Assembly (NCBI RefSeq): GCF_056712565.1
Contig: NZ_CM160072.1
Strand: one strand, 5' to 3'
Length of the DNA: 64,000 nucleotides
The notes under the pieces are model-generated. The model saw nothing but the letters and a program-made list of their open reading frames with translations. It was not told the origin of the DNA and ran no database searches. Below, piece by piece: positions 1 to 3,878 of the stretch. Position numbers and translations under genes: made by a program. Each line of letters begins with the position of its first letter. Position 1 is the stretch's first letter.

Positions 1-234
1 GGTTATGAGCTGACAGTACTGGCTGCGGTGGTGCTTGGCGGCACTAGTTTGCTCGGCGGGCGCGGCACGTTAACCGGTACTTTGCTCGGCGTGGTGTTGT
101 TGGCAGTGATGCAAAACGGGCTAAATTTATTGGGAGTCTCGTCTTACTGGCAAACATTGATCACCGGCATCATCATCGTTGCCAGCATTAGCGCCACGGC
201 GTGGAGTCAGCATCAGAACCGGAGTCTGCTATGA
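1..234 (+). CDS. ABC transporter permease, C-terminal fragment (CUT2 / RbsC-LsrC-like); gene begins upstream of window
   Basis: Frame open from base 1 to stop at 234; C-terminal motif GGTSLLGGRGTLTGTLLGVVLL...NGLNLLGVSSYWQ typical of monosaccharide-type ABC permeases; overlaps start of next permease gene. Confidence 0.6.
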   Translation, partial: GYELTVLAAVVLGGTSLLGGRGTLTGTLLGVVLLAVMQNGLNLLGVSSYWQTLITGIIIVASISATAWSQHQNRSLL

Positions 235-1187
235 AAAAATCGTGGCGTAATAACGTTGAGTTTTACTTGATCGGCCTGCTGGTGCTAACTGTTGCCGCCT
301 TCAGCATTACTATGCCGGAGATTTTCTGGTCGATAAGTAATTTCCAGTCCGTCGCTTCGCAAATGCCCGTGCTGGGCATTCTGGCGTTGGCTATGGCGGT
401 GACCATGCTTTGCGGTGGCATTAACTTGTCAATTATAGCCACTGCTAACGCCTGTTCACTGGTGATGGCGTGGGTGGCGACTCAGTATCCACCAGGTATT
501 GCTACGGTTGTCGCTACGCTGCTGGCGGGCGCTGGCGCGGCGGTGATAATCGGTTTATGTAACGGCGTATTGATTGCTGGTATTCGAGTGTCGCCAATTC
601 TTGCAACACTTGGGATGATGACGTTGCTCAAAGGGGTTAATATTCTGGTGACAGGCGGTAGCGCCATTGCCAATTATCCCTCATGGGTGCTGTGGTTGAA
701 TCATGCACAGTGGTTCGGTATTCCGCTACCGATGTGGTTGTTTACCGCAGTGGCGCTGGGGCTGTGGATATTGCTGGAGAAAACGCCGCTCGGTAAATCC
801 ATTTATCTGATTGGTTCTAACGAACGAGCAACACTTTACTCCGGTATTAACACTCGTCGGGTGCTGATATGGGTGTATGTCATTTCCGCCTTGCTTTGTG
901 CGGTAGCGGCATTTTTGATGATGTCGAAACTCAACTCGGCTAAGGCCTCTTATGGCGAATCTTACTTGCTGGTGTCAATCCTCGCGGCAGTACTCGGCGG
1001 GGTTAATCCGGACGGCGGCAGCGGGCGGATAATTGGTATGGTGCTGGCGCTGTTTCTTCTGCAAATTATTGAAAGCGGCTTCAATATTCTCGGTATAAGC
1101 CCCTACCTGACGATGGCCTTATGGGGAACGTTGCTGCTCTGTTTCATTCAGGCTCGCGGCATGTTAGGGCTGGATCGGGTGGTTTAA
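201..1187 (+). CDS. ABC transporter permease (CUT2 family, LsrD/RbsC-like)
   Basis: 328-aa hydrophobic ORF; motifs IGSNERATLYSGINTRRV and VLGGVNPDGGSGRIIG resemble the conserved loop and C-terminal region of ribose/AI-2 type permeases; 34-bp overlap with upstream permease suggests operon. Confidence 0.65.
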   Translation: MESASEPESAMKKSWRNNVEFYLIGLLVLTVAAFSITMPEIFWSISNFQSVASQMPVLGILALAMAVTMLCGGINLSIIATANACSLVMAWVATQYPPGIATVVATLLAGAGAAVIIGLCNGVLIAGIRVSPILATLGMMTLLKGVNILVTGGSAIANYPSWVLWLNHAQWFGIPLPMWLFTAVALGLWILLEKTPLGKSIYLIGSNERATLYSGINTRRVLIWVYVISALLCAVAAFLMMSKLNSAKASYGESYLLVSILAAVLGGVNPDGGSGRIIGMVLALFLLQIIESGFNILGISPYLTMALWGTLLLCFIQARGMLGLDRVV

Positions 1188-1273: not shown

Positions 1274-2323
1274 ATGAAGATCAAAGCTGTTGGTGCATAT
1301 TCCGCTAAACAACCGCTTGAACCGATGGATATCACCCGGCGTGAACCGGGACCGCATGATGTCAAAATTGAAATCGCTTACTGTGGCGTCTGCCATTCCG
1401 ATATCCACCAGGTCCGTTCCGAGTGGGCGGGGACGGTTTATCCCTGCGTGCCGGGCCATGAAATTGTAGGGCGCGTGGTAGCCGTTGGTGATCAGGTAGA
1501 AAAATATGCGCCGGGCGATCTGGTTGGTGTCGGCTGCATTGTCGACAGTTGTAAACATTGCGAAGAGTGTGAAGATGGGCTGGAAAACTACTGTGATCAC
1601 ATGACCGGAACCTATAACTCGCCGACACCGGATGAACCGGGCCATACTCTGGGCGGCTACTCACAACAGATCGTCGTTCATGAGCGATATGTTCTGCGTA
1701 TTCGTCACCCGCAAGAGCAGCTGGCGGCGGTGGCTCCTTTATTGTGTGCAGGAATCACCACGTACTCGCCGCTACGCCACTGGCTGGCCGGGCCGGGTAA
1801 AAAAGTGGGCGTGGTCGGCATCGGCGGTCTGGGACATATGGGGATTAAACTGGCCCACGCGATGGGGGCGCATGTGGTGGCATTTACCACTTCTGAGTCA
1901 AAACGCGAAGCGGCAAAAGCCCTGGGGGCCGATGAAGTTGTTAACTCACGCAATGCCGATGAGATGGTGGCTCATGTGAAGAGTTTCGATTTCATTTTGA
2001 ATACAGTAGCTGCGCCACATAATCTCGACGATTTTACCACCTTGCTGAAGCGCGATGGCACCATAACGCTGGTTGGTGCGCCTGCGACACCGCATAAATC
2101 GCCGGAAGTTTTCAACCTGATCATGAAACGCCGCGCGATAGCTGGTTCTATGATTGGCGGCATTCCAGAAACTCAGGAGATGCTCGATTTTTGCGCCGAA
2201 CATGGCATCGTGGCTGATATAGAGATGATTCGGGCCGATCAAATTAATGAAGCCTATGAGCGAATGCTGCGTGGTGATGTGAAATATCGTTTTGTTATCG
2301 ATAATCGCACACTAACAGACTGA
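1274..2323 (+). CDS. yahK: NADPH-dependent aldehyde reductase, Zn-dependent alcohol dehydrogenase family
   Basis: 349-aa ORF; GHEIVGRVVAVG zinc-ADH signature, structural-zinc Cys cluster CKHCEECEDGLENYC, Rossmann GVVGIGGLGHMG; RBS aggag 8 bp upstream. Confidence 0.85.
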   Translation: MKIKAVGAYSAKQPLEPMDITRREPGPHDVKIEIAYCGVCHSDIHQVRSEWAGTVYPCVPGHEIVGRVVAVGDQVEKYAPGDLVGVGCIVDSCKHCEECEDGLENYCDHMTGTYNSPTPDEPGHTLGGYSQQIVVHERYVLRIRHPQEQLAAVAPLLCAGITTYSPLRHWLAGPGKKVGVVGIGGLGHMGIKLAHAMGAHVVAFTTSESKREAAKALGADEVVNSRNADEMVAHVKSFDFILNTVAAPHNLDDFTTLLKRDGTITLVGAPATPHKSPEVFNLIMKRRAIAGSMIGGIPETQEMLDFCAEHGIVADIEMIRADQINEAYERMLRGDVKYRFVIDNRTLTD

Positions 2324-2360
2324 AAAAATTAATAAACATCCTGTGGTTTAACATATTAAC

Positions 2361-2396
2361 TTCGCTCCACTTAACTTTTTAGTTAAGGAGAGCGAA
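2361..2396 (+). terminator. Imperfect 16-bp inverted repeat hairpin downstream of yahK (possible terminator)
   Basis: ttcgctccacttaact / tttt / agttaaggagagcgaa, 14 of 16 positions complementary; no clean U-run after stem. Confidence 0.3.
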
Positions 2397-2758
2397 ATAA
2401 TATCAAAGTAGTGGTAAACCTATAGCGTAAATTCAGATTGTTAAATTAACTCCACTACTTTACACGTTAGTTATGAGCGATTTCTGATAGTGTCTGGTTT
2501 AATCAGAGCTTTATTATCTGCGACGTTTATTTTTATTTAAGAGAGCCACCTGCAAGTTGTTATTCCACCAGAGAGTGAATCGCAAAGCAGGTCATCATTT
2601 CATCTGTATATCTGTATGCCAAATGGCATTCCCCCTCCTTTTTCGCCGATATTTTGTTGTGAACGGCGGAGTTTCGCTTAAAAAAGCACCAGTAGTGGTT
2701 TCGCAGCTATATGGTGTATAAAAAATGTTCTCATACAGATGTTTTGTGAATGTGTGGG

Positions 2759-2787
2759 TTGACATTCATATGAAAAAAATCATAATT
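2759..2787 (+). promoter_or_regulatory. Sigma70-like promoter (TTGACA, 16-bp spacer, CATAAT) facing yahM
   Basis: ttgaca at 2759-2764 and cataat at 2781-2786 in AT-rich intergenic DNA. Confidence 0.3.
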
Positions 2788-2944
2788 CCATCATGTTTGT
2801 GTGGGGTCTTTTCTGTATCTTACGCATCGCACTCAAGCCTGACAGAAAATATGCTGTAAGGCTCATATCAAAAACCGCCATTAGCTCATCAGGAAGAGCA
2901 GACGACAACCAGGATTGTTGTATGGTACGGGGTTCGAGGCCTCG

Positions 2945-3190
2945 ATGGCGGTCCAACTTTTCAAAACTCTTCTGAATCAGATCCCCTTATTTTCATCCCT
3001 GCAAAGTGGAACATTGCCATTGTTTGGCTATTCAGGACGGGTCAGAGCAATGAAAAAAGCCCACACAGGGGAGAGTGGGCTGAAATGGGAAGCTAAAGAC
3101 TCAAGTAAACTTATCGGAAATAAGGACCACGCATTACGGGGGCTATCATCGCCGATGGTCGGGATTCGGCAAATCAGGTTGATTACGTAG
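2945..3190 (+). CDS. yahM: Small hypothetical protein (81 aa)
   Basis: ATG at 2945 inside a longer TTG-initiated ORF; ends 17 bp before convergent yahN stop, matching the K-12 arrangement as I recall it. Confidence 0.35.
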   Translation: MAVQLFKTLLNQIPLFSSLQSGTLPLFGYSGRVRAMKKAHTGESGLKWEAKDSSKLIGNKDHALRGLSSPMVGIRQIRLIT

Positions 3191-3206
3191 AGAGTAAATT
3201 ATCTGC

Positions 3207-3878
3207 TCACCGCTGCGTCACCCCTTCGTAAATCAGGCGTAGCGCGAATACACCAATAATTGCACCAATAACCCGACTGGCAACGCGTTGCATACGCCCA
3301 TAAGCACGACGCACTGCGGGCAAAGAAAACGCCTGACTAAGAAAGACTCGCCAGATAATTGATGCGAGCACAATCCCCGCCCAGGCCATTAAACGTGCCC
3401 ATGTTGGTGTTTCGGCATTTAATGTTACTGAGAAAATACTGATAAAAAATAAAACGGTTTGCGGGTTAGAGAGATCGGTAATTAATCCACGGCGGAAAAA
3501 GACATACCAGGGGGCACTAATCGGTTGTTGTAGTGTGCTCATCTGCGGTGTTGACTGGCGGCGCATGCTACACCACGCAAACCATAAGAGATAAGCGCCG
3601 CCGACGATTCTGATAAGCGAAAAAATCTCCTCACACTGCGTAATTAGCGTTGCAAGACCAAACAAACCCAACCCGGAATAAAACGCATCGCCCAGCGCCA
3701 CGCCCAGTCCGGTCAGCACCCCTGCGCGTCGACCGGAAGCCAGGCTGGTTTGTACTACCACAAAGAGATTGGCTCCCGGATTAAAAAAAGTAATCACGAA
3801 CAGTCCTACGGTCAGATAAACGGCGTGCAAAGGATCCATAGTGATTTCATCCATAAATAAGTGAAGTAACTTCATCAT
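3207..3878 (-). CDS. yahN: LysE/RhtB-family amino acid exporter
   Basis: 223-aa multi-TM ORF, minus strand; size and position match yahN. Confidence 0.75.
   Translation of the reverse strand: MMKLLHLFMDEITMDPLHAVYLTVGLFVITFFNPGANLFVVVQTSLASGRRAGVLTGLGVALGDAFYSGLGLFGLATLITQCEEIFSLIRIVGGAYLLWFAWCSMRRQSTPQMSTLQQPISAPWYVFFRRGLITDLSNPQTVLFFISIFSVTLNAETPTWARLMAWAGIVLASIIWRVFLSQAFSLPAVRRAYGRMQRVASRVIGAIIGVFALRLIYEGVTQR

Follow-up and report, generated by a model that had tools for sequence, protein, structure and literature searches.

The interval analysed here (positions 2324-2944) lies near one end of a 64,000-nt stretch of contig NZ_CM160072.1, hereafter the window, and separates yahK from the annotated yahM ORF (Table 1). 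The 901 bases around it are 100% identical to E. coli ATCC 11775, the identical record being NZ_CP033092.2, in which the annotated order is yahK, yahM, yahN, yahO and prpR and the yahK-yahM gap carries no annotation. The locus as a whole was found in 5,176 of 5,426 complete E. coli genomes. In K-12 the equivalent stretch contains yahL, plus a recently added 60-aa gene, xtpA, which overlaps the start of yahM. An earlier sequence-only reading of the window had described the interval as about 620 bp of AT-rich, non-coding DNA. Its AT-richness is borne out by a G+C content of 38%, compared with 51% in the whole window; the interval is, however, not wholly non-coding, because the start of xtpA and a tRNA-like element both fall within it.

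Table 1. Features of the yahK-yahM interval and its borders (window coordinates).
Feature	Position	Strand	Basis and remarks
yahK, NADPH-dependent aldehyde reductase	1274-2323	+	349-aa ORF; annotated in NZ_CP033092.2; left boundary of the spacer
yahL 5' region, orphaned	2324-2545	+	homologous to the yahK-yahL spacer of K-12
Hairpin directly after yahK	2361-2396	+	arms 2361-2376 / 2381-2396, 16 nt, 88% complementary
Inverted repeat AAAGTAGTGG / CCACTACTTT, perfect 10 bp	2405-2414, 2452-2461		loop of 37 nt; confined to the deletion haplotype
Junction of the 835-bp yahL deletion	2545-2546		lost piece corresponds to K-12 344170-345004
Third motif copy, AGTAGTGG	2691-2698	+	in K-12, in the spacer downstream of yahL
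Sigma-70-type promoter	2759-2786	+	TTGACA 2759-2764, 16-nt spacer, CATAAT 2781-2786
xtpA (K-12 b4845)	2793-2975	+	60-aa ORF without Shine-Dalgarno sequence; predicted to be leaderless
tRNA-like element	2875-2955	+	ARAGORN; encoded CCA end; unannotated in the PGAP record
yahM ORF, annotated	2945-3190	+	ORF and annotation; ATG within the acceptor stem (3' strand) of the tRNA-like element

The gene yahL, which K-12 has between yahK and yahM, is missing here, as the sequence-only reading had proposed, and its absence relative to K-12 is clean. To set the boundaries of the deletion, the window was aligned with K-12, with O157:H7 and with L010, a lineage of Escherichia that is divergent from E. coli. 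Homology runs unbroken from yahK to the yahL Shine-Dalgarno sequence AAGAGAG (2539-2545), stops there, and restarts at CCACCTGC (2546), which in K-12 lies 13 bp past the yahL stop; the alignment reveals no microhomology at the deletion ends. The orphaned yahL 5' region is 89% identical to its K-12 counterpart (L002 1935-2170). Very probably a single illegitimate deletion took out the 816-bp yahL ORF together with 6 bp upstream of its ATG and 13 bp downstream, joining the orphaned 5' region and its ribosome-binding site to the post-yahL spacer. The possibility that most E. coli lack yahL, so that K-12 would be the exception, is contradicted by the occurrence of yahL DNA in 4,076 of the 5,426 complete genomes (75%). 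The exact 2545/2546 junction is found in 1,072 of these genomes, among them CFT073, Nissle, EC958 and APEC IMT5155, which we take to be phylogroup B2 strains, and the deletion allele is a common one of B2 type. It resembles the presence/absence polymorphism of orphan genes in the E. coli pangenome, in that a small AT-rich orphan has been lost in a restricted lineage by single illegitimate deletion and IS insertions occur nearby in other strains; compared with such losses, the yahL deletion is unusually tidy, comprising the ORF and only 19 bp and leaving the ribosome-binding site intact.

Loci from several Escherichia lineages were recovered by using YahN as the anchor, with one genome per species. 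Lineage L010, which is approximately 11-13% divergent from E. coli at yahK and yahN (87-89% identical), holds an intact yahL of 271 aa in the same position as in K-12. Between K-12 and L010 the dS of yahL is 0.66 and that of the flanking yahK is 0.62, and the dN/dS of yahL is 0.17. Since L010 has a syntenic copy with a dS close to that of yahK, yahL is a real gene, inherited along with its flanks by vertical descent and older than the E. coli radiation, and on the same grounds the B2 state is a derived gene loss. The opposite polarity, in which the lack of yahL is the original state and other E. coli lineages acquired the gene as an inserted cassette, would suit an AT-rich (39% G+C) orphan gene and an indel almost exactly the size of its ORF. 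It would also suit the absence of yahL from E. albertii and from L009, the sister of L010 (92% identity), which is without the whole yahL segment; the yahL-bearing divergent lineages behind the polarity argument number one, L010. This course of events is nevertheless very improbable in view of the intact copy of L010, as divergent from K-12 at synonymous sites as yahK is, and also because the B2 allele keeps the Shine-Dalgarno sequence at the correct distance from the would-be yahL ATG, a coincidence that an insertion leaves unexplained. As L009 is the sister of L010, its absence of yahL is best read as a separate loss. A different deletion at the locus was seen in L033, and the region is one that loses DNA repeatedly.

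The gene lost from the B2 haplotype is an Escherichia-only orphan under purifying selection. No relatives of YahL outside Escherichia were detected among 5.8 billion proteins, and there was no match above threshold in Pfam, NCBIfam or PHROG. A phage or plasmid origin was considered and rejected, PHROG and a phage tblastn search having both returned no match; the matches on plasmids look like chromosomal DNA carried on plasmids (several being laboratory records of K-12) or like chromosomes entered under the label of plasmids. The idea that constraint on the orphaned 5' region is relaxed in B2 was likewise discarded, as with L010 as the outgroup the substitutions are roughly symmetric and only indels are in excess on the B2 side.

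Several further rearrangements were observed around the junction. In L005 (JNE120442; 3125-3560), which has the deletion junction, the left spacer is of B2 type (98.7% identical to the window) and the right spacer of K-12 type (92.4%), indicating a recombination breakpoint close to the junction. Three independent IS insertions were found in the region in other strains (L004, L038, L044); an IS1 truncates yahL in MARGA_3, an ISKpn26 lies between yahK and the inverted repeat in GN05056, and an IS1 lies within the tRNA-like element of DETEC-S792. A 54-aa ORF (2557-2721) begins with a TTG 11 nt downstream of the orphaned yahL Shine-Dalgarno sequence and is a possible fusion product of the deletion; no family match was obtained for this ORF, and it is probably meaningless. 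Upstream of yahK (window 1-1187 and further; L001 1-4988) there is an autoinducer-2-type sugar ABC transporter operon, also present in O157:H7. K-12 has yahJ where ATCC 11775 and O157:H7 carry this operon, and the difference is a second, independent presence/absence polymorphism at the locus.

Within the orphaned region, the imperfect 16-bp hairpin claimed directly after yahK is present, with a folding energy of -19.6 kcal/mol (z = -7). A scan for an intrinsic terminator at this hairpin was negative, no T-run being present and AATAATATC coming next. Its stem sequence is conserved across the genus, including L009 and E. albertii, and the B2 copy has a 2-bp deletion.

The perfect 10-bp inverted repeat, with its arms 37 nt apart, and the third copy of the motif were both confirmed. 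The 8-mer AGTAGTGG occurs four times in the 64 kb compared with 0.79 expected, three of these copies being in the spacer and one outside it, with no enrichment elsewhere in the window. When the 621-bp interval was shuffled by dinucleotides, 135 of 1000 shuffles (13.5%) contained some 8-mer at least three times, and the triple occurrence is therefore not remarkable once the search is counted. A perfect inverted repeat of at least 10 bp with a loop of 3-60 nt appeared in 43 of 1000 dinucleotide shuffles (4.3%), a marginal value, and the repeat is only weakly improbable by chance. Comparison among genomes tied the inverted repeat to the deletion, as the spacer form with the repeat is found in 1,069 genomes and the junction in 1,072, essentially the same set. 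In K-12, O157 and L010 there is no inverted repeat, because 11 extra bases occupy the right arm and the left arm is altered, reading AAAGTAGCAG in K-12 and O157 and TAAGTGAAGG in L010. Since K-12 and L010 agree at this site, the 11-bp deletion is derived on the B2 haplotype. Moreover, 650 of the 1,069 carriers (~60%) differ from the window by one base in the inverted-repeat stretch; in CFT073 and the soil isolate SC455 the changed base is the outermost of the right arm, which reads TCACTACTTT. The third copy is present in K-12 and altered in L005 (AGCAGTGG), SC455 (AGTAGTGA) and L010 (AGTATCGA).

The sequence-only reading had offered two explanations for this motif, a regulator binding site or the scar of a deletion, and neither agrees with its distribution and position. 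The inverted repeat is absent from yahL-positive haplotypes and from L010 and imperfect in carriers of the CFT073 type, and the third copy of the motif is variable. A distance of 84-140 bp separates the inverted repeat from the junction, which shows that it is not the scar of the yahL deletion. An operator formed by the AAAGTAGTGG inverted repeat and the third copy, at which a transcription factor would control the neighbouring genes, could be argued from the low frequency of such repeats in shuffled sequence (4.3%) and from the concentration of three of the four 8-mer copies in the spacer. However, the site is not conserved, being absent from the orthologous spacer of K-12, O157 and L010; one arm is mutated in about 60% of its carriers and the third copy in L005, SC455 and L010; a 37-nt gap between arms is atypical; the arms are located about 300 bp upstream of the only conserved promoter; and three or more copies of some 8-mer are common in shuffles (13.5%). 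An operator is thus extremely unlikely.

The direct copies of AGTAGTGGT (2407-2415 and 2691-2699) could alternatively be a target-site duplication of a yahL-bearing insertion, or the repeats behind a deletion in, for example, L009; L009 and E. albertii served as the "empty" sites in this comparison. The two copies match at 9/9 positions in this strain, and L009 has a single AGTAGGGG after the yahK hairpin, whose flanks loosely resemble those of copy 1 on the left and copy 3 on the right. Against this, the match falls to 7/9 in K-12 and to about 5/9 in L010, gap-tolerant alignment gives no single clean gap between the copies, no transposase is present, and no terminal inverted repeats lie inside the copies (3/30 ungapped matches), the local score of 6 in this test being below the shuffle mean and reached in 820 of 1000 shuffles. 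We consider such an origin very improbable. We read the motif as having arisen neutrally while the sequence of this AT-rich spacer turned over: the inverted repeat and the third copy are incidental to the haplotype, and the right arm was made by the derived 11-bp deletion. The RNA hairpin of the inverted repeat has a folding energy of -14.5 kcal/mol here (z -4) versus -7 kcal/mol in K-12, and is stable only in the deletion haplotype; from this stable fold and the rarity of the repeat in shuffles (43/1000) a lineage-specific role could be argued, although it is improbable. Elsewhere in the spacer, a tandem 8-bp unit, ATCTGTAT (2601-2618), is present in two copies here and in three in SC455, and an inverted copy of the unit (CATACAGATG) lies at 2732-2741.

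The near-consensus promoter reported downstream of the junction proved to be well founded, with 11 of 12 consensus matches and conservation throughout the genus. Its sequence does not vary among the E. coli examined, nor in L009 and L010, and E. albertii departs from it by one deletion and one substitution; immediately upstream the lineages diverge freely. From the -35 hexamer to the xtpA stop (2759-2975) the window is 100% identical to K-12 (L002 3219-3435). The 60-aa translation of xtpA is also identical to that of K-12, and the exact protein belongs to a UniRef cluster named XtpA. The -10 element CATAAT ends 7 nt before the A of the ATG at 2793, and the intervening TTCCATC contains no Shine-Dalgarno sequence. 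From this spacing and the K-12 annotation we infer a transcription start at or beside that A, in which case the start predicted earlier near 2793 would coincide with the first base of the xtpA ATG annotated in K-12. RegulonDB v12 traces XtpA to a paper by Muto et al. (2022; J Biochem 171:459; PMID 35081614) on a leaderless mRNA with a tRNA-like sequence in it. The promoter and the leaderless xtpA mRNA are already known, having been described in K-12. With respect to the K-12 xtpA locus, the ATG, the 60-aa product and the tRNA-like insert are the same; the promoter is situated 213 bp downstream of the deletion junction rather than downstream of yahL, and the loci are otherwise the same.

The promoter is very probably the one functional signal in the interval and would drive a leaderless xtpA mRNA whose body contains the tRNA-like element and which continues into the poorly conserved yahM ORF. 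A Reg-Seq preprint reports a yahM transcription start in K-12 with IHF as a repressor; its text gives no coordinates, and the yahM promoter studied there may therefore not be exactly 2759-2786. No exact match to the IHF consensus WATCAANNNNTTR occurs in the interval. According to RNA-seq, the transcripts of yahM and yahN overlap convergently. On the minus strand at 3052-3085, within yahM and some 120 nt beyond the stop codon of yahN, a GCCCAC...GTGGGC hairpin is followed by TTTTTT; it looks like a yahN terminator, is conserved in E. albertii, and fits the reported overlap.

Taken jointly, the spacer is very probably a yahL-deletion haplotype with a chance haplotype-specific repeat and the promoter of the known leaderless mRNA with its tRNA-like insert. 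The loss of an uncharacterised orphan gene in one lineage, combined with a chance repeat, is routine pangenome variation and matters little, and the locus of the promoter is already published and entered in EcoCyc and RegulonDB. There is a value for annotation, as the PGAP records of B2 strains, the type strain included, label this stretch empty, missing xtpA and the tRNA-like element and retaining the non-conserved yahM ORF.

The cloverleaf of the tRNA-like element is the minimum-free-energy fold of 2875-2955, also in the context of the whole ORF. It consists of a 7-bp acceptor stem, a 4-bp D stem, a T arm whose loop reads TTCGAGG and a 3' end at which TCCA is encoded, with an anticodon arm that is not the canonical 5-bp stem and 7-nt loop, having a 7-bp stem and a 6-nt loop, CCAGGA. 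ARAGORN sets the anticodon at the abnormal position 38, and the Rfam tRNA model (RF00005) found no match in 2200-3300 even at E values up to 10, failing because of this 7-bp stem and 6-nt loop. Other known RNA families gave only sub-threshold chance matches to the spacer in Rfam, and covariation in the leader hairpins was essentially none (1 compensatory pair in 49). A role of the element as an integration site was considered and rejected: the only truncated copy, present in a single genome, carries an IS1 insertion rather than an island.

Relatives of the element were found in the ileZ-argN-argO cluster that lambdoid and Stx phages (phiP27, TL-2011c, PhiR49_2, mEp460) carry downstream of the antiterminator Q. 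Over its acceptor, D and T arms, the chromosomal element shares 77-85% identity with the phage element between ileZ and argO, and the aberrant phage variants of phiP27 type share the left half of its unusual anticodon stem. Unlike the phage cluster, the chromosomal copy is solitary and has neither ileZ nor argO beside it; it comes with a sigma-70-type promoter of its own and a leader of 82 nt, and is fixed across the genus with its 7-bp anticodon stem and 6-nt loop. The middle slot of the phage cluster is occupied by a true tRNA-Arg (tcg) in PhiR49_2, by a variant with a tgg anticodon in TL-2011c, and by aberrant 81-nt forms in phiP27, mEp460 and one plasmid. A search of 2.9 million viral contigs for a donor phage yielded none with exactly the anticodon arm of the chromosomal element. 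Across the middle slots (L041 1512-1588; L007 2501-2582; L003 3009-3089), the acceptor, D and T body is constant and the anticodon arm is swapped or disrupted.

Of 5,170 E. coli records, 4,757 carry the tRNA-like element without any change over 91 nt, and among five Escherichia lineages 1 of its 86 columns is variable, compared with 26 of 77 in the leader just upstream (Fisher p = 7e-9). The reading frames that overlap it are less stable. The xtpA frame remains open in every E. coli examined, as it does in L009; its fourth codon is TGG in E. coli and TAG in L010 and E. albertii (L011), and the ORF may have opened recently or its peptide may be dispensable. The yahM frame is broken by a stop at codon 12 in O157:H7, by a frameshift in CFT073 and GN05056, and by multiple stops in three other Escherichia lineages, and the element is invariant in the genomes with broken frames (O157, CFT073, L009, L010 and E. 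albertii). The constraint therefore acts, at least outside E. coli, on the shape of the RNA (or DNA) and not on the peptides. An ordinary protein-coding yahM mRNA, with the tRNA-like sequence as a dead relic in its leader, would be in line with the annotation of yahM in most genomes and with several studies reporting regulated yahM transcripts; it is unlikely, as the frame is interrupted in these five genomes while the supposed relic is unchanged in them, and as the yahM ATG falls inside the acceptor stem.

A tRNA-shaped segment that is invariant across species, overlapped by two frames that are not, suggests that more than the peptide function reported so far may be at work here. Tentatively, and with somewhat less than even confidence, we propose that the product under selection is the tRNA-like RNA itself, and neither the XtpA peptide nor YahM, the RNA being a domesticated relic of the argN-slot tRNA of lambdoid phages. 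If RNase P and 3' processing release this RNA, neither the xtpA nor the yahM message would survive the cleavage, and the RNA and peptide outputs would be mutually exclusive. The conservation of the element and its phage homology may be the only part of the locus that goes beyond published work, and the lead that remains is whether the selected product is RNA or peptide. The tRNA-Other of Bacillus cereus is a regulatory pseudo-tRNA with a non-canonical anticodon arm, unlikely to decode and yet conserved. Like it, the present element is chromosomal, tRNA-shaped, unlikely to decode and nevertheless conserved, with a non-canonical anticodon arm; in contrast to it, the RNA sits here in an mRNA reported to encode a peptide.
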